A DNA stretch of 64,000 nucleotides from Harriotta raleighana (taxonomy: Eukaryota): positions 1,160,871 to 1,224,870 of the forward strand of contig JBNZDD010013641.1 of the NCBI GenBank assembly GCA_050575255.1, given 5' to 3'. A program made the position numbers and the translations under genes. Below, piece after piece: positions 22,191 to 42,529 of the stretch (positions within the stretch are counted from its first letter, which is position 1; the number at the start of each line of letters is the position of its first letter). The notes beneath the pieces are model-generated. The model made no database searches, was not told the origin of the DNA, and worked only from the letters and a program-made list of their open reading frames with translations.

Positions 22191-22245
22191 TTGCAAAGAC
22201 AGCAAACAACATAATAGTGAACATCGCAACGTTTAAATGGATATA

Positions 22246-22996
22246 CAGACAGTCCTCAAGTTACGTCAGGGTTAGGTTCCTAAGATGTGGTGTAAGTCGA
22301 ATTTGTATATAAGTCGAGTCACCCCCCTATAAAGCTTACAGTAACATACAGTGATTGGTTGTAGTGTATAGTGAGCTACCCTCTCTCCCCTGCACCCCTC
22401 CTAATATGTACAGTGCTGTAAATAAAATATTACTATATTTACATGGCTTCATTGTGAGTCAGGCACACGACGTAGCGCAACACAGGAGATCACACACGAT
22501 GTAGCGCAACACAGGAGATCACACGCGATGTAGCGCAACGCAGGAGATCACATGCGACATAGCGCAACGCAGGAGATCACACGCGATGTAGCGCAACACA
22601 GGAGATCACACGCGATGTAGCGCAACGCAGATCACATGCGACATAGCGCAACGCAGATCACACGTGACGTAGCGCAACGCAGATCACACGTGACGTAGCG
22701 CAGTCTAAAGGCTGGAGAGTACTGTACCGCCGAGCTCACAGACTCACACAGTACCTGTACAGTACACACTCGCGTCTCGCCTCCATCCTGTTCCTGTCCT
22801 GAACGCGTATCGTGGTCCCGTAAGTGTTGAGAGCGGCGACTCCAGTTTTCTATCGCGCGTGGGGCAACTAAAGTATTTACATAGTAGTGTCGTAACTTCG
22901 AGACTTTGGATGTAACTCGGACGTACTTTTACTGATTTTAAGTGTCGTAACTTCGAATTATCGTACCTCGAAACGTCGTAACTAGAGGACTGCCTG
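22246..22996. mobile_element. Non-autonomous Tc1/mariner (pogo/Tigger-like) MITE
   Basis: TIRs CAGACAGTCCTCAAGTTACG ... CGTAACTAGAGGACTGCCTG, with TA on both sides (22244-22245, 22997-22998). Confidence 0.88.
22464..22702. repeat. CpG-rich minisatellite (~9 copies of a 29/26-bp unit) inside the MITE
   Basis: Unit cacacgcgaYRtagcgcaacRca(gga)gat: five ~29-bp units, three 26-bp units, then a partial unit. Confidence 0.92.
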
Positions 22997-23939
22997 TATG
23001 TTCTCTATGTATCAGCAATGTTATAACCAAACAATGTTGACCGAATCAATGTTAAGTAGGGTCTACCTATAATAATTCCTCAACTTTGATATGATTCACT
23101 TGAAAGCTTTTATGTAGGTGTTCGACCTACAAAATACACAGTCACTACACTTTTACAGTATGATCTGCGAAGCGCTTTGAAACGTTTCAATAACATTATA
23201 AGATGCAGCATCAAATACAAGGATTATTATTTATGATGCCTTATGATTTTGAAATGTTTAAAAGTAATTAAGACTAAAAGTATGTATTTGTAGGCAATTT
23301 TAGCAGCCAATCTGCAGACCACATTAAAATATATTGGTACAGGTTGGAACAATTTTTAAATACTTACATTTGATATACAGCCTCTTAACGTCGGTGAAAT
23401 GTCTCAAAGTGCTCCAAATATTTTACAGCAAAGTGTAGTGACTGTTTACTTGTAGGCTAATAAACCCTCAGCCAATTTACGTAGAAATGCCAGATTCCTA
23501 CCGACTGAGCCAGGCTGACACCGATGTAACCTCTATATCTATGTATGTATATTTGTATATTCTAATATAATGAATTATACTTATATATCAGAGTTAATCT
23601 TTGAGCCCCAGGCACGTAGGGACCAGCTTGTTAAAAATTTCCACAGGAGACTGTTTAAATAAACATAAACCTATCCCATTTCTGAATTGCAAATTTCTCC
23701 AGCACGTGACGGTGGTAGGTTCCAGTCCAATGCTGACTGCATTCAGTTCACTGTAGTTTGTCACTTTCAACAACAACATCCATTGGCTGTATCTTAAACC
23801 CTCAGCGGGCAGCAGGGGAAAGGTGAGCAATCGGCCGCGAGCGACAGCATTTATTTAATCCTTCAGCGAAGCTGTGTGCTTTCCAGGAAGCTTTCATAAT
23901 AATAATAACATTAGCATTTTACTTTCACTTCCTATAGAC

Positions 23940-24731: not shown

Positions 24732-25056
24732 TTGTTGTTGTTATAGCTCAGTGGTTCGAGCTCTCACCTTGCAAGCTAGAGGCCACAACAACAAAATTAC
24801 ATTTATAGAGCGTCTTTCACGTCAAGGAGGATGTCCCAAGGCGATGGGACCTGAGTTATGATTCCTGGCAGTGGAAAACGTTGGGCAAGTTTCCTTACTC
24901 CACACGCCTCTGTTTACACAGTAGAAGTAGGAACATAGTCATTAGTCGATTGGCAGATCGTATTTCCGGGGGTTAATAATGCATTCAAAAGAAAAAAAAT
25001 GTGGTCAATCAATCCAAAACAGTTGTGGGACATTGCTGTGCACAATTGGCTGCTGA
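24732..25056 (+). mobile_element. tRNA-derived SINE with a nested ~60-bp L2 tail (~24786-24847)
   Basis: Head interrupted by acaacaacaaaattacatttatagagcgtctttcacgtc... Confidence 0.75.
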
Positions 25057-25278
25057 TTATTGTAACAGGAAGCACAGGATACTGCTCCGACTCTGTAAAG
25101 CACCCAAGACATTATCCTGTATGGAGAAAGTGTCGCTGATCAGTAACACAAACCGTGACTCCCCCTTCCCTTAAGTCCAAAAGCACTGAGACCAAACGCA
25201 GCAACCCTGAGTGCTGGTATCCACTAACTAATCACAACATGGAGAACTGGAACCTGCTGACCCCCCCCCTCCACATGG

Positions 25279-25867
25279 GCTGTATTAGTGAGTGCCGAGT
25301 TACCACAACAGTTCACAGAGCAGCTCAGGCAACAATGAATCAGCTGCTTCCTAACTGTATGTAGAACAAATGACGTTCCTCGCAATCCAAGCGGGTTTGT
25401 GGATGGCTTTAGCTGTGGTGATTATCGAGGCTTTTCCGACAATCCTTTATTAAAAGAATGGAGCGATGTCAGGAAGTATTGCCACCTCCTCTCCAAAGGC
25501 CACACAAATATCTATAATTAACTCACATTTTGTTGCCTAAACAATGCACGGAATAGGGGAGGGAGACGTGATTAGAGGCTTCAGTCTTTCATCATTCTTA
25601 ACAATAAAACTTTGGCTTCTGCGCTCCTGTAGAATTCTCAGTATCTTCGTTCGCTGACTGTTCAGGAAATATAGGATCGCGCAAAGTGATTCATTTTCTA
25701 GCCAGTGACACTGTTGATAAGGTCAGCCCAGTCGTAGTACACCAGCTATGTCTCTTAGCGACTGCTCATGTGTTCCTCTTTCACCACACTTAGGCAAGTG
25801 ATTAAAGGAACAAAATAGGAGCAATCAATAAAAGGAAAAATACTGCAGATGCTTGAAAATAATGAGT
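25279..25867. repeat. Copy A of a ~590-bp inverted duplication
   Basis: Its reverse complement aligns end to end with 40142-40775, ~93-95% by eye; 25441-25500 is identical. Confidence 0.95.
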
Positions 25868-26613
25868 TGTACAATCAACGACTGTTTGTGGGACACTGCT
25901 GTGTTCAATTGGCAGCCACGTTTCGCCTACAAATAGACAATCAATTCACTTTACAGTATATTCTGCAAAGGGGTTTAAGAAGACATGATAAGGTGCTGTA
26001 TCAAACGCAAGGATTATTATTTTATTAATTATCCAGCATCCCTCACGCAGGGTAGATACCAGAACCCCAAGGCTAGTTAGCCCAACTCCTCCAGGGGGAA
26101 AGATCTTTCTATTTTTTTTAAAAAAGGGTTAAAACTGAACAAGAAAAATCTCCCACAAGCTGTGAAGTTAACAAAGGTGCGGACATTGCAAGTTAGGCCT
26201 TTGATCATCGATTGCGATGTTTTTGCAAATACAGAAAAAACAATTACACAAGAAGCATTTTTTAATTTCCTTCTACGTCCTGTGGTTTGGCAATTGTTTC
26301 AAATGCCCATATTGTCTAACAGATTTAGACCTACCATAACACTGCTCCCTGTGCATCAGATGCACGTCTTACTCCCTCCCTCTCTTTCACTCTCTCTCTG
26401 CTCCTTTTATATTCTGTTACATAGCAACCAGCAGAACAGACATCAGAGCGACACTATTATTAACTTGGAAAAATATTTCACCAGGGCTTGTGATAAAAGG
26501 CCCAGGATAGTAATTACTGGAGAAACAAAATCACAACTTTCTCTTTCTGTTCAAAGTCAAAGTACAAACCTTTTCGTTCACCCTGTCAATCTACCAACAT
26601 AAACCCTAAATCA

Positions 26614-26647
<34 letters not shown>

Positions 26648-26949
26648 CTCTATATAATATATATATATCTCGCCTACAAATGTAAGTTCAACGGTTTGCC
26701 TCATTACAGGAAGAAACGCAGCATTCATTCAGTGCTCTGCAAAGCTTCCCACTACACGCAATGTTTTTGAAGCGTAGAATAATTTAAGAAGCAATTGATA
26801 AGAAAGGTGATGTCGTTGTCTATTTGATATACACTGTCTCCGAGTTCCATTCATCTTCATACGTCTTTTTATTTTAAAACACACTGCGGTCTGTAACCGC
26901 AAGACAAGAGGGAATGAGAGAAACATCAACCTATAGAAAGTGAGATTCT

Positions 26950-27300
26950 GATAACAACAAGAAGCATTTATATAGCGTCCTTTAATCCGGGATAGCGTCT
27001 CAGAACACTTGACGGTGGCAGAGTCTGACTTCGAGCCCAGAGGGCTGAGAGGAAGGTGGGATGGTGACTGCAAGAGCCATCAAAAAGAAAGGTCTTTAGT
27101 CAGGATTTGAAAGTGGGGAGGGATGGAGGGAGGGAGGGAAGGTGGAGGGTTTGAGGGATGCGAGTTCCAGAGTTTCGGCGCATAGCGGCTGAAGGCAGGG
27201 CTGCCAATGGTGGAGTGGAGGGGACGAGGAATAAACAGGAGGCTAGAGCCAGCCGAGCGGAGGCAGCGGGTGGCGGAGTAGGAGTTAAACAGATCGGATA
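26950..27300 (-). mobile_element. L2 LINE 3' fragment
   Basis: LRSAGSSLLFIPR...AFSRYAPKLWNS remnant. Confidence 0.8.
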
Positions 27301-27769
27301 ACACAGACAGTGTGGAAGAGAAACAGAAATAGGTAAACACATACACACACACATTAACACACATACATGCAGGCACGCATGCACACACACACACACACAC
27401 GTAGGCACGCACGCACGTACACGGAAACACAACCTCACTGGCATGAAGAAAATAAACCACATAGAGAAAGAAAAATAATTTACAGACACACCGTGAGAGC
27501 TATAGAGATATGAAAATGAGTGGATAAATTGTGACTAGCTGGGAACCTTGTTCTTTTATCCATGCACATTTGTGCTCATTATATTCTCTTGCTTTCCTCT
27601 CCTGAAGTCACTGAATCCCTCACTGGTTTACAGCACCCAGCGCCAAACAGTATCCTCCAAGGGGGGCTGGGGGTGCGCTCTGCGACGCTATCCCATGTGA
27701 AGAATGTTATACAAATACAAGTTGTTACTGTTGGAAGTGAAGAGAGCAATCCTGGAACTGCTGTGATCA

Positions 27770-28067
27770 TTATTAGAATAATAGTAATCCTCGCATTTGA
27801 TATAGCACTCTTCACATCTTCTAGACGTCTCGAAGCGCCTCACAGAGTATACTGTAAAATGAATTGCCTGTATATTTGTGGACAAAACGCAGTAATCAAT
27901 TGTGCACAGCATCAACCACCACAAACAGTCAGATTAAACCGACCAAATAATGATTGATTTTTATTTGGTGTGTGGAGTAAAGAAACTTGCACATGGTTTC
28001 AACATTGCCTGGAATTGAACCCAGATCTCTCGTTTGCAAGGCGAGTGCTCTAGCCACTGAGCTACAC
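27770..28067 (-). mobile_element. tRNA-derived SINE (short subtype)
   Basis: Family motifs. Confidence 0.85.
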
Positions 28068-28727
28068 GACACCATTTCTCTTCCCACTGCTCTTCCTGCT
28101 TGCTACACTAGGAGCTTCAGTCAAATGCTGGAAAAAGAAGGTCCCTTGGAAACCTAATTCCTGCTTTCCATCAATCTCACAGTTTGTCTCCCTTCATTTC
28201 ATTTCCATACATATATTTTTTATTGACTTCTGCGATTCTTTCTTTATTACTTCCCTCCCATCCCCTCCTGCCGTAGTTCACACACTGAGAAGCTCCTCCC
28301 ACCCACTCCAAGCACAATTGCTTCATTGTCTTTCCCTGTCGCCTCTTCCAATAGTTTCCATTCAATTCCCCAGCACTAGAAAGCCGTGCCTAATGCAGTA
28401 TAGCTAGGCTATGGCTAGGGACAGACGAGAGCCCAGCTGCTAATAAATACCACCTACAAATATACAGTCACTACACACTATAGTAATATCCTGTGAAGTG
28501 CTTGGAGATGCTTTTAAAGCCCTTCATGACCTTGCCCCCCCCCTACGTCTGCAATCTCCTAACCCCTCAGCAACCTGTCCACACCCTCCGCTCAGTGGGC
28601 TCCGGCATGCTTCATATGCCCCAACCCACCACCCTACCATTGGCAGGTGAGCCTTCAGCCACTCTGACGTGAAAGATGCTATACAAATATAATGTTGTTG
28701 TTGTTGTTGTTGTTGTTGGAAGCCATG

Positions 28728-29016
28728 ATAATAATAATAATCCTTGCATTTGATATAGTGCTTTTTACATCTTCTAGACATCTCAAGGAACATACTGTAA
28801 AGTGAATTGATTGTATTGTTTGTGGACGAAATGCGGCAGCCGATTGCGCACAGCAGTGTCCCACAAACAGTCATGGATTGAAATGACCAATTGTATTATG
28901 TTTTTTGAGGGATTATTGTTAGGCGTGTGGAGTACGGAAACTTGTCCAAGGTTTCACCCTGCCTGGAATCAAACCCAGGTCTCTTGCTTTGCAAGGCGAG
29001 TGCTCTAAAGACTCCA
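28728..29016 (-). mobile_element. tRNA-derived SINE (short subtype)
   Basis: Family motifs. Confidence 0.85.
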
Positions 29017-29839
29017 CATAAGATAGTGCATTAAATGCAAGGATGATTATTATTATTATTACTATTCACATGCAAACAAAATAAAGTTTGGATGTGTTGC
29101 TAAGTTTTATATGTAGAGATATAACACGTGCTGACTTCCCAACGTAGAAACATCATGTCTTCTAACGCATCAATAACTGAAGCGGCCTTATGATAAACAG
29201 TCTCGATGCACTGCGAGGACCCAGCTTTCTTCCAAGGAGTATCAATGTAAATTCATTAACTGCAGGGAGTGCGGGAAGAAGCAAGCCAAGGTAAGCAGTG
29301 AAAGAAACCCTGGGTTGTTAAGAAGCTACAACAACACAAAGATTACATTCTCTGACAGTTTTCATGCTGTGGCTAATCAAGCTAGTCAAAAGCTAATTTG
29401 TTCCAGAGGTTAACTTGTCCGGGTGTCTAGTCTTCACAGAGGAAGCTGCCTAATATAGTACAGCCAAATTCATTTGTGACATCTTTTCCAACCAATAATT
29501 CTGCAACTGTAACCGGACTGAATGTATTTTCCACAGGTCAGAGTGACATAGAGGCTAAATTAGCTTGTGTTGCTGAGAACAGTTAACCTTTCAACTGCAC
29601 AGTCAGTTGTCAGCAAGAGATGTACAGACACCAAACCTTTCAAAACATGAATACAGCAGGCACTTGAGTGACGTGAGCTGTTGTTGTACAACAGGCTAGT
29701 GTGCGAGATCTGCTCAACTCTGGGTATACTCGGCCTTACTAGATAAATGTACCAATGTCACACGCAGCCTGACTCACAACTGGTGAAACATCACAAGATC
29801 ACGACAGGGTTTGGAAGAAGAAGGTGGTAGAAGGGAAGT

Positions 29840-30052
29840 AGAAATCCAGAGTTCTCTTCCCTCAAAAGGCTGTGGATGCTGGATACATCCACACCTTCAA
29901 AAGTGAGGTTGCTGGATGTTTAGTAGGTCAGGTCAGGGTGTAAAGGGATATGGGAAGAATTGAAAGATTAGTTGAGTTGATCAGCCATGATCTAGTTAAA
30001 TGGCAGAACAGGCTCGAAGGGCTGAATGGCCTCCTCCTGTTCCTATGTTCCT
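29840..30052 (+). mobile_element. CR1 LINE 3' end fragment
   Basis: gatcagccatgatct...aatggcagaacaggctcgaagggctgaatggcctcctcctgttcctatgttcct. Related fragments at ~18500-18730 (-), 20065-20180 (+), 41390-41590 (-) and 53710-53860 (+). Confidence 0.75.
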
Positions 30053-30715
30053 AAGAAGGCCCATCTTACACAAGTCAATAACTTCAGTGTTGCAGTTCCC
30101 GCCACCTATACTGACTGCTATAAATAGCAAACAAGAGACGGCCAGCATATTGTTGCCATTACACCCTGGCACAAGTCCATGGCTTGCTCCTGATCTACTG
30201 TGCCACATGCGAGTGGTTTGGAAATTCAATGGATTAAAATCCTTCCCAACAATGCCCACAGATAAATCCCCACCCAAACCCACCCACCACCCACCCACTC
30301 ACTCACTGTGTGACATGTTAATGAATGAAACCACTTTCTATTCACTCCCGACTGTGTCAGACTCCTATTACACATGTCACACCCGGGCATGTGCAATCCT
30401 GAGTCAGGAATAAAACCTTCCCTTGTTCTCTGTAGCTTTAACGCTCAGTGACCCAATAAAGCCAGTCCCCTGGTGAGTTCCATGTGAACGCAGCAAGTCT
30501 GTGGAAAGTGAAACGATTTGCTGAATGACTAACGCCAAAATAGTTTGAGTTGCAAAGAATTGAAAATTGGGTCCTCTCAATCCGGTTGCTTAGGAATCTT
30601 CCAGCAAGCAGAATGTTCTGCACTGCTTGATCAAGGATTACATTCCCAGATATCCTCGGCCACATCAGGAGAGGGTCTGTAACTGCGGAGGAAATTGGGA
30701 TAATGGGATACTCAC

Positions 30716-30837
30716 TGAGGCAGCTGTGGCCATAATGCACCATGAAATCAGCTCCTAGGGCTCGGGCGGTGTAATCATCCACACAGCACGCGCCATATGT
30801 GACATCGCCCATCACCAAGGTGTCCGCTCCTGTAAAC
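30716..30837 (-). CDS. DPH1: Internal coding exon (122 nt) of diphthamide biosynthesis protein 1; probably equivalent to human exon 4
   Basis: Minus-strand translation (R)[40 protein letters not shown] matches the DPH1 hallmark motifs GDVTYGACC and VHYGHSCL. Acceptor is ...tattacAG|G (cag = 30840-30838) and donor is CTCA|GTGAGT (from 30715). Confidence 0.95.
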
Positions 30838-30844
30838 CTGTAAT

Positions 30845-31767
30845 ACACCAGGAGCAAGAGCTCAATCCACTTTGCTAAACACACATACACACGCTCTCAC
30901 ATATACACACACACACACACACATAGATACCAGGAGCGAAAGCTCAATTCACTTTCCTAAACACATACACACACCACACACACATATACATAAATACATA
31001 CACACACACCAGGAGCAAGAGCTCAATTCATTTTGCTAAAAATACCCGCCCCCCTCCCCACACACACACACACACATGCATAAACATACACACACAACAA
31101 CAAAAACACATTTATTTTTTCACATCGGGAGGACGTCCCAAGGTGCTGAACAGTCAGGTCGGGACCTGAGCAAGAGAGGGGCAGGGTAGGGGGGAGGGGC
31201 AGGAGAGAGTTAGCAAAGGAGGGATAGAATTGGGAGGGCAGCAGAGGGCATGGTCATAGAGGAGGGTCTTGAGACCGGGAGTAAGAGCTCGATTCATTGG
31301 TCTATGCCTTTGTCACCTCTCGGCTGGATTATTCCAATGCCCTCCTCACTGGGCTCCCCTCTGCTGCCATTCACAAAATCCAGGTTATCTGTTCCACCAT
31401 TAGCAGCCTTGCATTCAGCCACTATCCGCCCTGAGGCTCTGGAACTCCCTTCCTCACACCCTTCTCCTTGCCCCCTCTTTTCCTATTTTCAGGTCATGGC
31501 TAAAGGCCCTTCTTTTCGACCGTGCTTTGGGTCACCTTTTTCCTCCCTCCCTGACTTGGTCCAGGGAGCTGTTATTGTGAAGTGCTCTGAGACTCTTTCT
31601 GGCATGGAGGGCGCTATATAAATCCAAGTTGTTTTTGTTAAATAGGAGTGAAGGCTTAATTCACTTTGTTAAACACACACTTATACACGCATGCATGCAC
31701 ACACACACACACACACACATATATGTATACACAACACCAGGGGCGAGAGATCAATTCACTTTGCTAA
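30845..31767. repeat. Degenerate minisatellite: five copies of a ~35-bp unit separated by (CA)n, interrupted by L2 fragments
   Basis: accaggagcaagagctcaatYcactttgctaaa-like units at ~30845, 30929, 31006, 31644 and 31734. Confidence 0.8.
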
Positions 31768-32693
31768 GCAGCCAACATCTCAACAGGGAGTACAAACTGT
31801 TGCGTGAAAGCAAGCTTGTCTCTTACAAATCCCAGGATTATAATAATGATAATAATCCTTACATATGTGTAAGATTAATTTCACGTCAGTTTTTTTTTAA
31901 AAAGTTCATTGTCATCAAGCATGTGAGGCTGGCAGAGCCAATAATATATTGCCCGCCACTAGTGCCCTTGAGCAGGTGTTGCTGGATGACATGATAAGAG
32001 TGTGAAAAATAATAGACATGAGCGACCAGAACTGGATCTAAATAAGAAGTGGCTTATATGGAGAACTACCTGAAAGAGGTTATCTACCAAACAATTTGTA
32101 TGATAATAAAAAATATCCTTTAAATTTGACATAGCACCTTTTCAATGTCAGGAGAATGTCTCAAAGTGCTTCCCGGTATTTATTATAAAGTGAAGTGACT
32201 ATGTATTTAGTAGAAGAATGCAGCAGGAGTCCGGTTCCTGACTGTATTCCAGGGCACCGCTGAATGACAGCACAGCCAGCCTGGCTCATCAGGACCTGGA
32301 AGGGCAGATCAATCTCAGTAGCACTAGCCCAGTTAGCTCCTGTAACCCAAAGCCCTAGCCGGACAAGCATTGCCAGACAGCAATAGCAACGGCAAGCTGT
32401 GCGGTTTTAACTCGTTAAGACTCCAGCAGTTACCCCAAGCCTTTGCTCTCGCCAACCTGCGCTTAATACTTTCCAGACTAAGGTAAGCAGGGGGCATCAC
32501 TCCAGGAAGTGCATTCCATTTCAATAAACATCTCTGGAATTTCCATGTGGAGGTGGGAGCATGGATCCCTCAGTTTGATTTGGTTACTAGTAAGCACGTT
32601 GATGGGTTCTCTGCATGTGTCAGACACCCATCCTACACAAACAAAAATCAAATGCAAAGATTATTCTTCTAGGATTATGAAGCAGATTCCACC

Positions 32694-32869
32694 TGTTATA
32701 TATGTAAGGGCATTTGTGCATGCGCAGTAATCGATGACGTATTAGGCAGATATATTAAACCACTTTGGAATCGTAACTCAGCCAGGCTGCACATGTATTC
32801 TTTAAGTCATGAACAGTAAGGTAATCAATAGTAATCCATCGTATCAATAGCATGTATTGATACACAACA
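32694..32869 (+). repeat. 5' LTR of Gypsy element (176 bp)
   Basis: TGTTATATATG...GATACACAACA; roughly 90% identical by eye to 35548-35751. Confidence 0.93.
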
Positions 32870-32871
32870 TC

Positions 32872-32884
32872 TGGCGATGAGGAT
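32872..32884 (+). promoter_or_regulatory. Primer binding site, tRNA-Ser(GCT)-like
   Basis: TGGCGATGAGGAT lies 2 nt after the 5' LTR. It is one mismatch from TGGCGACGAGGAT, the complement of the vertebrate tRNA-Ser(GCT) 3' end. Confidence 0.75.
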
Positions 32885-32918
32885 AAACTTTCCATACAGA
32901 GGGATATTTTGAGGAAAC

Positions 32919-35434
32919 ATGGCCAAGTTTGGCAAAATAGGGGAGTTTCAAGCCGAGGAGGAGGAATGGTCACTGTACATTAAGCGTGTGGATCATTACT
33001 TCCCTGCAAACAATGTCACAGTGGAGGGTAAGAAACGCTCCATACTGCTTAGTGTTTGTGGAGCGACTACCAACAAGCTGATGTCGAGCTTGTTATCGCT
33101 ACGTAAGACGGGAACTGTCCCACTTTCAGAACTGATTTCTGTTGTGCAAGATCACCAAAATCCCAAGCCATCGGTCATCGTTCAGAAGTACAAGCTGAAC
33201 AGTCGCAATCGTCAAGACGCGTGAGTCAATTGTTGATCATATAGCAGTGTTACGGAAAATGGCCGAACAGTGTGAGTATGGAGACAAGCTCGAGAAAATG
33301 TTGAGCGATCGGTTATTCCGTGGAATATCAGACGACCGGATTCAGCGCAGGTTATGAGCAGAACCAACTTTCGACTACGCAAAAGTACTTCGAATTGCCT
33401 CCGCCCTGGAAATAGCAGATACGAACACGGCCGACCTACGAGGACATGCCAAAAAGGAACATGATGTTACTGTGAACAAAATGTCAGCTCAGAGTGGCAG
33501 TCAAAATGGCCGCAGGCCTTTTCGTGGAACAGGAGTGAAATGTGATCGTTGTGGCCGTACTGCTCACAGAGCCACCAATTGCCCAGCGAAAGAAATGGAT
33601 GTTATCGCTGTGGGAAAACTGGTCACAAGGCCAAAGTCTGCCGTTCGATGCCATCTTATAAACATCAAATTAATTTTCGTGAACAGCGGCAGAAAACAGA
33701 CATACCACATTCAGGGAGAGATTCGCCCTAGCAAAAGCGAAGAAGCCTACAGTCTGTTTACAAGAGTAGTAAAAACACTCCACATTCGTTACCACACTTC
33801 ATGTCCACGGCTGCGACTTGAGGATACAAGTGGACACGGGATCTTCGGTGTCGATCATGAGCGAAAGGTTGTTCCGTTCTACGTGGGGGGCAGACACACC
33901 CCCAATACGCCCCAGCAATGTTACGCTACACACTTACATGGGTCACAGAGTAATGGGTCACCTGAAATTGTCGGTGAGTGCGACGTGGCTGTGAGAAATG
34001 ATGAGACAGGTAAAAAAGTGAGGTATTGCTCATTGTGAAAGAATCAGGTCCTACTTTACTCGGTCGCGATTGGCTACGAGTTATTCAGCTCAACTGGCAG
34101 GAGCTGAATAAAATGACAACTTCCTCAAAGCTGGATAAATTGCTCGCGAAAAATGAGTTCGCACCAGAGTTTGGTAATCTGAAAGGCATGGAAGCCAAAC
34201 TGGATGCGGATGCCACAGCTATTCCGAAATTCGTGAAAGCGCGATCGGTACCGTTTTCTTTGAAGTCAAAGATCGAGAAGGAACTTGAGCGTCTCAAAAA
34301 TGATGGTATCCTTGAACCTGTCCAATGTTCTCGGTGGGCAGCACCCATCGTTCCCGTGGTGAAAAGTGACAGATCTGTCAGTATATGTGATGATTATAAG
34401 GTCACGATAAACCAAACAACAACAACCGATACTTACCCGATACCGCATATCGAAGAGTTGTTCACGTCACTGTCAGGAGGAAAACTGATCTCAAAGCTCA
34501 ACCTCAGCAACGCTTACCAACAACTCGTACTGGACTCCACGACTTGCGAGTATGTGACCATCAACACACATCGGGGGTTGTTTCAGTATAGGCGTTTACC
34601 GTTTGGAGTGATGAACGCACCCGCTGTTTTTCAGAGAACCATGGAGAGCCTTCTCGCAGGTATACCTCACATTGTAGTATATCTCGACGACATTCTGCTC
34701 ACTGGAGATACGCTAGAACATCATCTCGCCACGTTGATGAGTGTTCTTCAGGATGCGGAACTGCGACTAAAAAGGGAAAAATGTGTTTTCCTCGCAAGGA
34801 AGTAGAGTATTTGGGACATAAAGTGAGCACTCAAGGTCTCCAGCCAATCCAGACAAAGCACACGCTCGGAAATACGCCTGTCACTCCACCACAGATTCGT
34901 TTTTGGACTAATCGAGATCGCGTCTTGTCTTGTGTCCACTATTATGTGATGCACAGATGGCCAAAATCGATGGACGATGATGCTATGAAGCCGTATTTCA
35001 ATCGAAAAGCGAACTCAGTGTTTAAGATGGCTGCTTGATGTGGGGAGCACGTAATCATCCTGGAACATGGGCAAGCACAAATGATTGATGAGCTACACCA
35101 AGCACATCCCGGTATTGTGCGCATGAAAGCTGTTGCACATGGCTTAGCATGGTGGCCACACATTGACGTTGACCTGGAGCAAAAAGTCAAATCTTGTGAA
35201 ACGTGTCACAAACACCTACATCTTCCGCCCAAAGTGCCACTACATCCGTGGAAATATTCGAGCACGCCATGGGAGATGGATGGACATGAGGACAACGACA
35301 TTGACCAGGGTGATGCACCGGACGACAATGACCTCAACGAGGACCATCCAAACCAACCTGTAGCGTCCAACCACACCGACACGTCGAGTGAGAGGAAGAC
35401 GTTTCCATCTCGTCAAAATAAAAGACCCCCCTAA
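32919..35434 (+). pseudogene. Disrupted gag-pol of the Gypsy element
   Basis: Gag N-terminus MAKFGKIGEF; two CCHC knuckles (CDRCGRTAHRATNC, CYRCGKTGHKAKVC) in different frames; protease VDTGSSVSIM at ~33831. RT motifs WAAPIVPV, RLPFG and YLDD are in ORF 34026-34805, and the integrase HHCC finger is in 35081-35434. Contains stops and frameshifts; RNase H and the integrase core are absent. Confidence 0.9.
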
Positions 35435-35547
35435 ACGATTGTTAAATTTAAAATTAAGTTCTGGTTTTCTTGAGTGAATGTGACTCACAGTTAACAGTTG
35501 AACTTAGAAGTTCGGCTATGTTATGTCGGAACTCGGGGGGGGAGGTA

Positions 35548-35751
35548 TGTTATATATGTAACGGCATCTGCGCATGCGCAGATGTCGATGACGTAGGAGC
35601 GCAGATATCGATGACGTATTAGGCAGATGTATTAAACCACTTTCGAATCGTAACATAACCAGGCTGCACGTGTATTCTTTAAGTCATGATCAGTAAGGTA
35701 ATTGATTGTGATCCATCGTATCAATAGAATGTTACCTATTGATACACAACA
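35548..35751 (+). repeat. 3' LTR of Gypsy element (204 bp)
   Basis: Follows the polypurine tract. Has an internal ~23-bp duplication (gcgcagatRtcgatgacgta) and a 5-bp insertion relative to the 5' LTR. Confidence 0.93.
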
Positions 35752-37892
35752 CCACCTGAACGTTTTATAATGGGGTAACCCTGTAGTAATGGCAATAAAA
35801 TCTTTACATCAGATACAAACAACAAACAGCAAGACATAAAGAGGATAGATGTGCGTGTGAAATCCAGAAGAAGCAGCAACAACAAGCCAGTCAAGGTTAA
35901 ACGCATGTTTTACTGTAAAATACCTCAAGAGTTATTGTGGTTATTTTTGACTACCGAATTGTATGTGGCTCGAATTTTGCAAAAGCCCTTCTCTGCATGT
36001 CTCTGCAAGCAGTTGTCTGGATTAACTGGTCCCTGGGTAAACTCAGCTACAGGAGATCCATATGCATTAGTTTATCCAGAGAGCTGGCAGCAGAGATGTG
36101 TTGGATGGTGTCCCGAGAGCCTCAGACACTGCCGTTACAGCCACAGAACGCTTTGTGCTTTGTGGGGTTTGAGCGAATCATTTAAATGCCGACAAGGACA
36201 AGGCTGGTCTCACATCCACATGCAGTGGGTTTCCTCAGGCGACCCATCAGAAAGGTTAAAGGATTATTTGCCGCTATCAATCTATACTGGGAGGGAGTGG
36301 AGATGAGGGGTTTTGGGGAAGGAAGATAAGAGACGAGGAAATTACGCCTGTAGTTACAGCTCATTTGTTGAGCGTCTACACATGGATGAAGTGCCCACTT
36401 GACTAACTAAGGTGATCACCTAACAAGGTTCTTAAGAGCTTTTGACATTTAAATGTTGCCCACGTCATCAGGAACAAGACTGCGCTCACTTCCACCTGGA
36501 CCGAACCTCTCACCCTACTTCATAGCAGGTGTGTGATGAGGCAAGGTGAAACGAGCCAAGCGAAGGAGAGGAGGAGGTAACACAGTCGAAGAGGTGGGTT
36601 TCAAGACCAGACTTGAAGATGAGGGGACCCTGGACAACAACAACTATAACAACTTGCTTTTGTACAAAATTACATTTACATAGCAACAACAACACCTTGC
36701 ATGTATATCACACTTATCCAGAGAGCCAGGCGATGTCTCAGAGGGCTTACCATCAAAGATACCATCTGCAGAATAGAACACGTGCCTATTTCGGACTTCA
36801 CCCACAATATACAGTCCGTTAATTTCACAGAATATCATGTGAAGCGGTTTGAGATGTGAAAAGGTCCTATATCAAATGCAACCATTATTATTGGGGTTAT
36901 GATTATTATATAACCAACAAATTGAAAACTTGCATTTATAATTTAACGTCTCTCATGAAACCAAAAAAGTCTCAAACTCAGTGTCACCATCAAACCCTCA
37001 CAAACACGCTCTGAGTCACTTGTTTACATCGCTTACCGTGACCATAACGATGGCTGAGACAGAGCGGGCAGGTTGTTCTAAGTTGCCACAAGCTGACATT
37101 GGTGATCAACAAACCTATCAAAAGTCTCGTTGGTAAAAGGCAATCTATTACTGAACCGAGGTAAGGATAAGTCACCGAAGGACAGAAAATAGCCCAGGTT
37201 ATGATCAGAGGAACACATTTCTGAGTCCATACGACCGGCGGCAGTAAATTGAAATGCTGTGGTCCAAGAGTGTTGTCAGGAGAGGAGGTACGGTTATATT
37301 CCCTGCTCACTGAGGGTCTCAAGATGCTTTTAACCCCACACTGCCCGCGGGAAAGCCCACATACGGTTGGAGATGTTTGTGGTCACAGTCAGACCACGGA
37401 CAGCAGGCCTGGAAATTGGATGGAAACGCTTCAATGTCTAGATATGCGTCGTCAGATGCTGAGGACGAAGTATTCCCAGGTGTTCCTCCCCCCACCCCTC
37501 CCCACTCCTCAATCCGTTCCGTTTGACTGACCTGCTGCCTTATATCGCTACAGAACATTGATTAGTGTGCCTTGTTGCAATCTCTAAAACAAACCAGCTT
37601 GACCTTCAGTTCAGTGCATTTACCAAACCCTACGCTCTGCATTTTGCCAGCTAAATACACAAGAGTACAAACAGCATTCGCCGGGTTTGGTGTGAGTGCC
37701 GGTGTCTGCAAGAGCAGTGAGACTGTAATTATCCATCTGCCTGAAGGAACTTTCAACTGTTATCACATTAATGCCGAAATGAAGCAAAGCTACTTAAATG
37801 CTAACATTTCTGCTTCACAAGTGTCTCAAAGCAATGTGAGACTGGAAGGACAGAATGGAAAGAAACCAACGCAAGCAATAATAATAATACAG

Positions 37893-38203
37893 TAATAATA
37901 ATCCTTGCATTTGATATAGCACTTTTCACATCTTATCAATGTCTCAAAGTGCTTCACAGAATATACTGTAAAGTGGATTAACTGAATATTTGTGGATAAA
38001 ACGCTGTGCAAAGCAGTGTCCCTCAAACAGTTGTGAATGGAAAATGATCAACTTTTATTATTGAGATTTTTTGGGGGACGGATTATTATTAGGCGTGTGG
38101 AGGAAGGAAACTTGCCTAAGGTTTCACCCTGATCTGCCTGGATTCAAACACAGGTTTCACGCTGGTAAAGCAAGTGCTCTAACCACTGAGCTACAGGAGC
38201 TCC
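37893..38203 (-). mobile_element. tRNA-derived SINE (short subtype)
   Basis: Family motifs. Confidence 0.85.
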
Positions 38204-38907
38204 AATATAGCTTTTCTGGTGGCTGAGAGGGATTAATAATTATCCTGTCCAGTCCTCTTGGGACGTCCTCCTGACGTGAAAGGCGCTCTATAAGTGTAAT
38301 TTTGTTGTTGTTGTCTTGTGTATTGGATTTGACATTTTCATGTTTAGTGCAGTTTGAAATCACTGCTGTCATCTAGGCTGGGTATGGAGCAATGTGGAAC
38401 TAGGAGCCTTGAGTTGTAGACTGAAGGGGGTCCCTGCCTTCTACATAAATCATTCTTTCCATATACAAAAGCAAGTGGTGATATTTCATTGATCAATGGT
38501 GACCTCATCCAACACCCATACACCCCACTGGCTGTCTCCAGAACTGATGCTGGCTATCTGACTATCCACAGAAAGATGCCACTTGGACGACTGACCAGAA
38601 GAAGAAAAACAAACACTCAAAGGCTCCGACTGCAAAAATCCACCCCAAACCTGCTCAACATTGCCACGCAGCACACAGAGCTGGGAGGGACTCTGACGTC
38701 TGGTGGTGGATTTTCCATTCCAAGAACATTGGAGAGAGAGCACCTAATGGTGAGGGCATCATCAATGGCCTCATTATATACAGTACTTGGTGAATCCAGG
38801 TACTTCACACTTCATAGTTGTTCACACTGACAGCTCTGGGTGTGAGAGGGCTGTGAATTCCCTTCAGATCTTCAGCTCAGTGCAACACACCGAGGGGTAG
38901 GGGAATG

Positions 38908-38909
<2 letters not shown>

Positions 38910-38941
<32 letters not shown>
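38910..38941. repeat. Poly-G tract (~31 nt)
   Basis: Direct observation. Confidence 0.85.
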
Positions 38942-38944
<3 letters not shown>

Positions 38945-40032
38945 GCCTGCCAGCATCAGAGATGACGATCTTCACATAAGTTATTGAGCTAAGGTCCTAT
39001 CTGCTGATTTCAAACTTCAAACTTGAAGATCCAATTTGAAAAACATTTGTCACAGCCACCAATACTCCAGATTGCCTATTTACCCATTGCTTGGTTGTGG
39101 GACTTCTGCTGTTGCATTTATCAAGATTTCTACACTTGGCAAGTAATTGCTGAGATGCATTTTCAGATATTCCCACATTATACAGTAATAATAATCCTTG
39201 CATTCGATATAGTGTTCCTTTTGCCTTCAAAATATACAGTCGATTCACTTTACAGTATATTCTGCGAAGCGCTTTGAGTCGTCTCGAAGACTTGATAAGG
39301 AGCTGTATCAAATGCAAGGATTATTATTATTATCAGGTTTTCTAGATGCCTCAAAGTTTCACAGAACTTACTGTAAAATGAATCGAACATATGGGCATTA
39401 TATACTTCTTATGCACACGGTGAGAACCCCAACCATTGGCTTTTACCAGCCTCTGCCTAATGCTCTGGAATTAGCTACAGACTGTGGAGAGGGAGTTCAT
39501 TCCATTCCAGACCAAGGGACATCCTCCCGACATGAAAGATCTTATACTGTACAATGTAATTTTGTTGTTGTAGATGGGACACACACACAATAATAATAAT
39601 CTGTCCAAAAAAACCCCCACAATAATAAAATAAAATTGGTCATTTCAATCCACGACTGTTTGTGGGGACACTGCTTTGCGTAATTGGCTGTCGCGATTCG
39701 CCCACAAATATGCAGTCAATTCACTTTATGGTATATTCTGTGACGTGCTTTGAAATGTCGATAAGATGTGAAAAGAGTTATATCTAAAAGGATTATTATT
39801 ATTGTTATTACGGAGCTGTCAGTTTGCTTTGGGTACTTTGCAGCATGGTGATGGGTTTCCATGTGTGGCAGACACACAACTGGCAAAAAAAAATCCAGGC
39901 TCTTCTACCCGATCAGTGAAATAAGTATTTCTCAATGATATGTTCATGTACTAATCGGCAGCGGAACAAGAGGGAGAAAAATACAATTCATTAGAATGGC
40001 TATATAATCCTCTACTCTATATTGTTATTATT

Positions 40033-40185
40033 TTGGCAGCATCTTTGGAGAGGAAAGTGAGTCAATGTCAGATGAAAGAGTTCATCGACCTAAAACGTTA
40101 ACACACTTTCCTCTCTCCACAGATGCCGCGTATTCTCAGCGACTCATTTCAGATTTCAAGCTTCTGCAGTATTTTGCCTTTTATT
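40033..40185 (+). mobile_element. Penelope-like pLTR remnant (inverted arm plus degenerate hammerhead-like core)
   Basis: ggcagcatctttggagaggaaagtgagt is inverted relative to acactttcctctctccacagatgcc. Core CAGATGA...gacct-AAAAC-GTT-AAC at 40069-40102. Homologous to 40811-40915 and 48325-48498. Confidence 0.6.
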
Positions 40186-40775
40186 GATTACTCCTATTTT
40201 GTTCCTTTAATCACTTGCCTAAGTGCGGTGAGAGAGGAACACATGAGAATCGCTACAACAACAACAACAACAACAACAAAATTACACTTGTAAAGGCGCC
40301 GAGGGACACAGCTGATGTACTACGACTGGGCTGACCTCATCAACAGTGTCACTGGCTAGAAAATGAATCACTTTGCGCGATCCTATATTTCCCGAATAGT
40401 CGGCGAACGAAGACACAGAGAATTCTACAGGAGCACAGAAGCCAAAGTTTTATTGTTAAGAATGATGAAAGACTGAAGCCTCTAATCACGTCTCCCTCCC
40501 CTATTCCCTGCATTGTTTAGGCAGCAAAATATGAGTTAATTATAGATATTTGTGTGGCCTTTGGAGAGGAGGTGGCAATACTTCCTGACATCGCTCCATT
40601 CTTTTAATAAAGGATTGTCGGAAAAGCGATAATCACCACAGCTAAAGCCACCCACAAACCCGCTTGGATTGCGAGGAACGTCATTTTTTCTATATACAGT
40701 TAGGAAGCAGCTGATTCATTGTTGCCTGAGCTGCTCTGTGAACTGTTGTGGTAATTCCGCACCCACTAATACAGC
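40142..40775. repeat. Copy B of the inverted duplication, with a 46-bp L2-tail insertion (40256-40301)
   Basis: Reverse complement of 25279-25867, plus an inserted (caa)n-aattacacttgtaaaggcgcc. Confidence 0.95.
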
Positions 40776-40810
40776 ACTAAGCCATAGATGGGAGGGACGG
40801 GGAGGGGTCA

Positions 40811-40915
40811 GGAGTGAGTTCTGAAGAAAAGGTCTTCGACTTGAAACTTTGACTCACTTTCCTCCCTTCATGGATGCTGCCTGACCAACCACTTGTTCCC
40901 AGCGAATTCAGTCGT
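40811..40915 (+). mobile_element. Penelope-like pLTR remnant with type I hammerhead-like fold
   Basis: AGTGAGTT-CTGAAGA-aa-AGGTC ttc GACTT-GAAA-CTTT-GACTCACT. Stem I pairs 40813-40820 with 40851-40858, and stem II is intact. Confidence 0.6.
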
Positions 40916-42529
40916 TTTAATCACAACAATTTTAATCCTTAAAGAGAGTGCTGTGGCTGTTCAGAACCGTACTATTATACATAAAACATTGTTTCCGCCG
41001 CAGATCAGCAGCATCCGAAACCGACGCACAAATCATTGGGATTATTTCTCCCTTTCATTTATTTAATTAAGCAAATGATCCAAAGCGTTTCCCTCCTTCA
41101 GGAGAGAGCAACACTTCCAATTTGATGGGTGCAACTAAATTATTGTCGAAAGTGTTCTGGGGATTGAATCTGACAATTATGAGTAATCAATGTGCATTCA
41201 TCACTCACGCGGGATAAATGTTGTTGGTGCTTAATCAGATGCGTTGCCAGCTCCTCTTCATTGGACTCTCCTTCAGCTGCTAACATACAGGCCATTTATT
41301 CTCTGATAGTTTTTATTGCTCGAGCCTATTCACAGTCCTGATTAGCTCAAATTCTAACATGTCACCATTCCGCATTGGGGGAGGGGATTAGAATCATAGA
41401 GTCGTAGAATACTACAGCGCAGAGACGGAGCCACCATGCCTGTGCCGGCTCTTTGGAAAAGCTACTCAATCAGTCCACTCCCCGGTCTTTCCCCATATCC
41501 TTGAAAATCTTTCCTTTTCAAATACTTTGTCCAATTCCCTTTTGAAAGTTGTTCTTGAATCTGTTTCCATCCTCCCTTCAGGCTGTGCTTTCTAGCTCTA
41601 CATTGACGGAGATGTCATCCGTTGGTTGAGACATTAAGGCAAGGTCCTGTTCACCTGTTTCAGGTGGATGTTAAAAATCCCGCAGCACATATTCAAAAAA
41701 ACCTCACCCCACCTAGACACTGCAGGGAGAAATCAGGCAAGTCCACAGAGAGAGAGAGAGAGAGAGAAACTATGGCTCACAAGACAAACCTTTCTCTCAT
41801 TCCTTCTCACTGTAAATTTCCCCCGATCTTCAGCCTTCAATGAGTCTATCTGATTAACATAACATACAATTTTGGGCCCAATCCGTGGGAGCTGAAACTG
41901 TTTAAAATTCATACAGTGATTCGCAGAATAACAACATCACAGCGACTTTTAATCCTCTGAGGCCTGTGTTCACTGTTCAGAACCAAAAATATATATCTAT
42001 ACACAACAAGGGTAGCATTTGTAATCCTTTAGGCTTTCCTGACAAGGCATCTCTAATAACAGATACGCTGGGAACACTTGAGAATGGAAAGGGAATAAGA
42101 TGGTTATGATTTTGCAAGGGATTTATTCAGGGAGTGAGGAAGCCTTCTGTAGTTTTACTCTCTCCCACCACCCCTACACACATTGCATTAATCGGATTCG
42201 ATCACATGCAGTGATGGAGATGGCAAAACAATTAAAGGATCGCAAGCTATGTTGCATGTGGAATAATGGGGGATTTGCAAAACCGAAACAGCAATTTAAG
42301 TTTTTCCACATGTTAATAATAATAATCCTTGCATTTGATATAGCGCTGTCTGCATCTTCTAGACATCTTAAAGCGCTTCACGGAATTTACTGTAAAGTGA
42401 ATTGAGTATATTTTTGGACGAAATGCAGCAGTCAATTACATACCACAACCACCACCTTTCCCCTCCCTCCCTCCCACTCTCCCTAACAAATAATAATCCC
42501 CTTCCTGTATCTTCTCATTTAGTAATCAT

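Follow-up and report, generated by a model that had tools for sequence, protein, structure and literature searches.

A low-copy inverted pair around a DPH1 exon of Harriotta raleighana, with arms probably duplicated long ago and kept alike by gene conversion

A stretch of 64,000 nucleotides (nt) of Harriotta raleighana (NCBI GenBank assembly GCA_050575255.1, contig JBNZDD010013641.1, positions 1,160,871 to 1,224,870 of the forward strand; hereafter the window) was analyzed, in which a 122-nt coding exon of DPH1 is bracketed by two reverse-complementary arms of about 0.6 kb. We consider it fairly probable, from comparison of the arms with each other and with those of a related organism, that the pair goes back to one old copying event of the repair type and that the arms have since been kept alike by gene conversion, with no function evident. 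If this is true, concerted evolution acts on arms as short as 0.6 kb that lie 14 kb from each other and continues through a species split, such pairs appear younger than their real age, and each of them is a standing risk of an exon flip in an important gene. The reading would be a small extension of known biology, and would carry more weight if RNA data tied the pair to exon skipping.

The inverted pair and its copy number

The elements on which the argument is built are the following (coordinates are those of the window):
25279-25867, plus strand: arm A of the inverted pair (self-comparison, global alignment, two genome copies)
40142-40775, minus strand: arm B of the inverted pair (self-comparison, global alignment, repeat remnant running past the inner junction)
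40256-40301, minus strand: 46 nt inserted into arm B, derived from a high-copy repeat tail with a terminal TTG run (alignment, after position 25755 of arm A)
30716-30837, minus strand: DPH1 coding exon, 122 nt, FTGADT...HSCL (AG/GT ends, Pfam PF01866 match)

An earlier reading of the sequence without database searches (the sequence-only reading) had described a reverse-complementary pair of ~590 bp, 93-95% alike by eye. The pair is real and inverted: in an end-to-end global alignment with arm B reverse-complemented, 558 of 585 aligned columns were the same (95.4%, 27 substitutions), with four insertions or deletions (indels) of 3, 46, 1, and 3 nt. In a BLAST self-comparison, the best non-self match of the window joined 25279-25858 to 40775-40154 (88% with gaps counted), while the ungapped blocks were 94-96% alike. 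The inter-arm distance is 14,296 nt, and the arms stand where they had been placed relative to the exon, i.e., A 4.85 kb past its donor (30716) and B 9.3 kb ahead of its acceptor (30837).

A search of the 1.1-Gb genome with the arm core returned 2 candidates, which gave 2 matches, and a 24-mer of the arm, allowing at most 2 mismatches, matched once in forward and once in reverse orientation. Two dispersed repeats of the same window, used as controls, returned 350 and 2099 candidates, so the search was able to reveal repeats. A common dispersed repeat, the outcome that would have spoken against the sequence-only reading, was thus not what the copy-number check found, as the segment occurs exactly twice. 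The view that it lies outside the high-copy families agrees with these two genome copies, with the refinement that the innermost ~35 nt of both arms belong to a dispersed repeat. Contigs of one sequencing run (X2, see below) carry both arm versions; this, together with the divergence of the arms, argues against an assembly artefact. Outward of the arms, weak similarity continues for ~25 nt, to about 25254/40813, with a score matched by 2 of 200 shuffles; among seven flank comparisons for residual homology past the arms, five were at chance, the others being this edge and a repeat-containing one (4/200 shuffles).

A probable second arm copy in a related organism

A search of sequencing runs with arm A listed 12 runs, no RNA run holding arm A being among them; nine had the whole arm or part of it, and these came from two organisms (here organism A and organism B). 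Runs X1, X5, X9, and X10 were compared on 24905-26380, and X5, X9, X1, and X2 on 40305-41370, the evidence for organism B coming from X5 and X9 (two samples from two studies). Raw reads of X10 amounted to 1-4 per arm position, too few for judging an inversion. Organism A is near-identical to the window (two contigs, of 367 and 377 nt, had no differences), whereas organism B is ~7% diverged, with differences at 51/731 sites on arm A and its edge, at 25/377 in the outer flank of arm B and at 24/267 in the inner flank of arm A.

In organism B, a single contig spans the arm (25173-25903 in X5, 25173-25755 in X9), and includes a segment outside the window's arm A:
25173-25278, plus strand: single copy in this genome, within the two-copy block of organism B (organism B contigs)

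In X5 the arm contig had a depth of 34.6 and the flanks had 18 and 21.4, while in X9 the arm stood at 79.1 and the flanks at 38.3-46.9. These arm/flank ratios of 1.76 and 1.85 are above the 1.38 expected if the arms differed as they do in the window; organism B therefore probably has two copies, much more alike than the window arms are. The X9 contig stops at 25755, the base before the 46-nt insertion of arm B, and beyond this point two single-depth paths follow (41.8 and 46.9), the first of which aligns through 25763 like arm A, while the second covers 25768 and not 25763. The alignment of the window's own arm B likewise fails at 25763. The branching is probably that of the same 46-nt insertion in the second copy of organism B, which would imply one duplication, probably older than the split of this species from organism B. 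A lineage-specific origin of arm B is made less likely by the fall of the X9 break at the insertion base.

Divergence between arms and between species

For a duplication that precedes the split, the divergence of the arms from each other should be no lower than that of orthologous flanks between the species, and it is lower (27/585 vs. 49/644, Fisher p = 0.03). Among the sites listed for 25279-25755, at least 20 have the same letter in both window arms and another in organism B, compared with 7 changes found only in arm A and 8 only in arm B; this excess (p = 0.02 and 0.04) is not independent of the preceding comparison. The arms thus appear closer within than between species, which favors arm-to-arm gene conversion, on the premise that the second copy of organism B is orthologous, as only then does an arm-arm divergence below the species divergence mean conversion. 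The same pattern of low arm-arm relative to between-species divergence underlies the inference of conversion in primate X palindromes (PMC8327919). In addition, of the 31 weak/strong arm differences among the sites listed, organism B carries the strong base (G or C) at 25 (p = 0.0009 vs. an even split), an excess that is suggestive of GC-biased conversion.

Polymorphism caused by conversion was weighed as the source of a mosaic contig in X1 and of an additional X2 allele; this reading was dropped, as the depth was below 5 and path switching or CpG decay may be responsible.

Arm ends and direction of copying

Both ends of the pair lie next to older repeats, among them pieces of a transfer RNA-type short interspersed element (SINE):
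40040-40185, plus strand: remnant of an old dispersed repeat, spanning the inner end of arm B (most other copies are 69-83% alike)
40814-40912, plus strand: another remnant of this repeat family, at arm B's outer end (the organism B flank match begins at 40814)
24837-25053, plus strand: SINE head without tail, outside arm A (family positions 44-207)
25872-26027, plus strand: tail piece of the same SINE family, adjoining the inner end of arm A (family positions 163-326)

In arm B the inner remnant runs past the junction, whereas in arm A only ~35 nt of it are left, after which the tail half of the SINE follows. A 7-nt variant of the remnant is common to both arms and was present in none of the 27 other readable copies (29 fetched). 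On one side of arm A the SINE head has no tail, and on the other the tail has no head. This layout suggests an insertion of 25054-25871 into a single SINE, by which A would be the inserted copy and B the donor. Head-only pieces made up 27 of 1015 matches of this SINE family, and seven of these 27 had a tail piece 100-1500 nt downstream.

The arm junctions, at which repair could leave microhomology, filler, or a deletion, are old and eroded. No terminal inverted repeat (5-8 of 30 terminal letters match), poly(A), or clear target duplication was found at the arm ends, around which there were only matches of 4-5 nt.

The two remnants at arm B have the same orientation, one on each side of the arm. 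We take their family to be Penelope-like with a hammerhead-like core, a label for which Rfam returned no hammerhead match: at E <= 5, the search of 39900-41100 gave eight weak matches, none of which reached the gathering score.

Proposed history and the evidence against it

The events would have run as follows. DNA from the site of arm B, starting in the old repeat remnant, would have been copied, reversed, into a SINE across the exon, giving rise to arm A, after which arm B would have gained the 46-nt repeat tail and this species would have split from organism B. In each lineage, non-crossover recombination between the arms would then have homogenized them, recently in organism B, over 25173-25755 and halting at the insertion, and longer ago in this species. 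Crossover products, with the exon flipped and DPH1 broken, would be eliminated by selection. The arms would also be able to pair in the precursor messenger RNA (pre-mRNA), most likely as a by-product.

Several observations weigh against this history. The second copy of organism B is known from contig depth and branching and not by its place or orientation, and collapsed contigs mask variants, as in X1, where the arms of the window species are merged at a depth of 7.03 (vs. ~3 elsewhere); X2, unlike X1, retains both arm paths. X5 has no break at 25755, the X9 contig at 25769-25903 has a depth of 49.4 where ~88 would be expected, and the differences listed number 40 per comparison (of 51 for X5). 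The organism B contig at the outer flank of arm B matches 40814-40869 and 40983-41359 and then enters 568 non-arm letters. These may have been deleted in the lineage of the window, or may border an empty site on its inner side; the latter would agree with the repeat tail that lies 568 nt inward of the inner junction, at which a contig might end. The lean towards G/C is also seen at non-arm weak/strong sites (11/18; arm excess Fisher p = 0.18), and the differences along the window arms are unclustered (probability of a perfect run of at least 96 letters, 0.12). Finally, the SINE head and tail overlap by 45 family positions and have no derived letters in common, so that they may be two separate insertions.

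Some of these points would suit a young duplication restricted to one lineage (of arm A or arm B), followed by neutral decay without conversion, with organism B having duplicated a similar segment independently. Such a course would leave non-arm letters in the flank of arm B in organism B, whose match starts at 40814, where the arm similarity ends. It would also suit the unlike block edges of the two species (25173 vs. about 25254) and the even distribution of the changes that arose after the arms were last the same (8 on arm A and 8 on arm B, with 1 third allele, at the 17 sites with a call). However, two events on nearly the same 0.6-0.7 kb would be required, against a background of two local inverted pairs in 1.66 Mb, and the X9 break at the exact base of the insertion would be due to chance; we therefore regard a young duplication as unlikely, though deserving of some weight.

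Gene layout and the inversion alternative

The introns bordering the 122-nt exon measure about 103 kb and 52 kb, within a gene that extends over ~300 kb (C13641:999663-1303221). All seven PF01866 matches on contig C13641 lie on the minus strand and in profile order, and short motifs that we take to mark upstream DPH1 exons put these on the minus strand as well. The exon described as lone by the sequence-only reading is single in the window, with further DPH1 exons elsewhere on the contig; its strand, one of the checks which that reading had proposed, is the same as that of the exons outside the window.

This bears on the suggestion that the pair consists of the two breakpoints of a 14-kb inversion. 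Inverted duplications can mark staggered-break inversions, and an arm that starts within a repeat remnant would also suit a low-copy transposon or a retro-transduced flank. As the exon is colinear with the other DPH1 exons in strand and order, the 14-kb spacer is not inverted and the inversion is refuted; an inversion followed by re-inversion is its only remaining possible form. The two copies and the arm ends described above, without terminal inverted repeat, clear target duplication, or poly(A), speak against a transposon or transduction. This group of explanations is largely refuted, and we consider it extremely improbable.

A nested gene was looked for in the window, and three of its 32 long open reading frames matched Pfam, all with retroelement domains. 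Decayed plus-strand retroelement frames lie between the arms (33358-35434), with a reverse transcriptase at 34014-34805 and an integrase zinc-binding domain at 35039-35434. Just upstream of the exon acceptor, a unit of ~82 nt with CA runs, including acceptor-side sequence, is present in about three copies (30847-31099), which could supply decoy acceptor sites. An upstream DPH1 exon occurs twice in a 1885-nt, 100% identical direct repeat around one N (C13641:1300412-1304182, L042-L043); gap-flanking direct repeats of this type, of which there are many, are probably assembly artefacts. Further PF01866 matches were found on two contigs, at C13672:14224-14340 (L008) and on C13666 (L003, L004, L010), and presumably represent DPH2. 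The GACC cysteine of DPH1 is, we assume, a ligand of the iron-sulfur cluster. Mouse DPH knockouts are embryonic-lethal according to PMC10669111.

Pairing in the pre-mRNA and constraint on the arms

The sequence-only reading had also proposed that the pre-mRNA could loop out the exon. The geometry is suitable for this, with long complementary arms in both flanking introns, and the predicted duplex of about -1040 kcal/mol was the strongest folded (the lowest of the next 11 pairs by score reached -368). As that reading predicted, skipping would shift the frame: the preceding exon ends two bases into a codon, and without the 122 nt translation would run into a stop at codon four of the exon that follows.

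Selection could then keep the arms matched, if pairing looped out the exon and a decay-prone transcript or circle tuned the level of DPH1. The strength of the duplex, the early stop upon skipping, and the probable persistence of the pair in two species would fit, as would the position of each arm less than 10 kb from the exon, the widest window applied to Alu pairs in PMC13019944. That study associates inverted Alu duplexes with skipping in human cells, yet its captured duplexes mostly lie inside one intron and closer together than background. Moreover, the exon is bracketed by 135 inverted pairs in the window (E < 1e-5), of which 79 measure at least 100 nt, and six bracketing pairs of at least 60 nt have a shorter span than the arms. 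No bias towards changes that keep base pairs was detected, as 12 of 19 transitions leave a G-U pair on the transcribed strand (p = 0.36), and the duplex has accumulated, and so tolerated, 8 transversions and 4 indels. Conversion alone would account for the arm similarity, and we judge selection for pairing improbable. The specific form in which the arms are a splicing switch, with neutral drift and with conversion and selection keeping the pairing across 14 kb and resulting in DPH1 skipping and decay, we hold to be quite improbable.

A duplicated enhancer, which the sequence-only reading had offered as an alternative, or another conserved element would agree with non-repetitive sequence retained in two species. 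It gained no support: conservation of the arm does not exceed that of the flanks (51/731 vs. 49/644 differences to organism B, p = 0.68, from one comparison of low power), the arm has no Rfam match at the gathering threshold, and the frames of arm A are all of 61 codons or fewer. This explanation appears highly improbable.

Comparison with known systems

In F8, conversion occurs between the copies of the intron 1 and intron 22 repeats (int1h and int22h). These resemble the DPH1 pair as short inverted copies between which a crossover would disrupt a gene; unlike them, both DPH1 arms are inside one gene and one pre-mRNA, and no inverted allele was observed.

Repair-mediated duplications (Pace, Sen, Batzer, Feschotte 2009, PMC2671141) are similar in that unique sequence of a few hundred bases is present in exactly two linked copies, without poly(A) or target duplication; insertion of arm A into a transposon would be a further likeness. 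The proximal ones have donor and acceptor less than 5 kb apart, as opposed to 14.3 kb here, and their donor-acceptor divergence tracks neutral time, while the DPH1 arms appear more alike than their age implies. The gene-converting palindromes and inverted repeats of primate X chromosomes (PMC8327919) likewise have inverted arms around a spacer, with palindrome arms of 8-140 kb that are >99% alike (here 0.6 kb and 95.4%). In comparison with these repeats, including those around FLNA-EMD (PMC8327919, PMC3961182), the DPH1 arms are non-coding and the spacer holds one internal exon, so that an inversion would break the gene.

The 'Inverted Dup' variants of the 1000 Genomes Project (PMC4617611) are also segments of <1 kb that were reverse-duplicated nearby; nearly all lie within 5 kb and are young polymorphisms, unlike the arms described here. 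As in the Alu pairs and TBXT exon skipping of PMC13019944, complementary arms flank an exon, each at less than 10 kb, but the DPH1 arms are not high-copy, the exon is frame-shifting, and the configuration is known from DNA alone. The pair would behave as a repair-mediated duplication with later conversion of the inverted-repeat and palindrome type. On balance, we favor placing it in a broad kind, that of local inverted duplications with arm-to-arm conversion, and in no narrower one, given that it falls outside both the 5-kb distance and the arm length and identity of the palindromes. No published description of this DPH1 locus or of its configuration was found in the open-access literature.

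Low-copy pairs elsewhere in the genome

The background was sampled over 1.66 Mb from three contigs, in which 26 low-copy pairs of at least 250 nt passed the filter: 23 pairs of neighboring direct copies (identity mostly 99-100%, with many located at assembly gaps), one pair between contigs, and two local inverted pairs. The second local inverted pair (C13641:1653596-1654162 and 1659106-1659693; L110:8726-9292 and L111:4236-4823) is 91% alike and 4.9 kb apart. Its copies, of ~570-590 nt, each start and end in a repeat tail, and their unique part matches only its own two places. A scan of 33 of the 36 listed frames between its arms gave one weak match, below the cut-off. Local inverted low-copy pairs are uncommon in this sample and not exceptional.

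The window also contains a young dispersed element of 757 nt (22242-22998), which has at least 39 other copies that are 91-95% alike to it. At distances of 68 and 156 kb, DPH1 introns hold two more pieces of this element, in inverted orientation.

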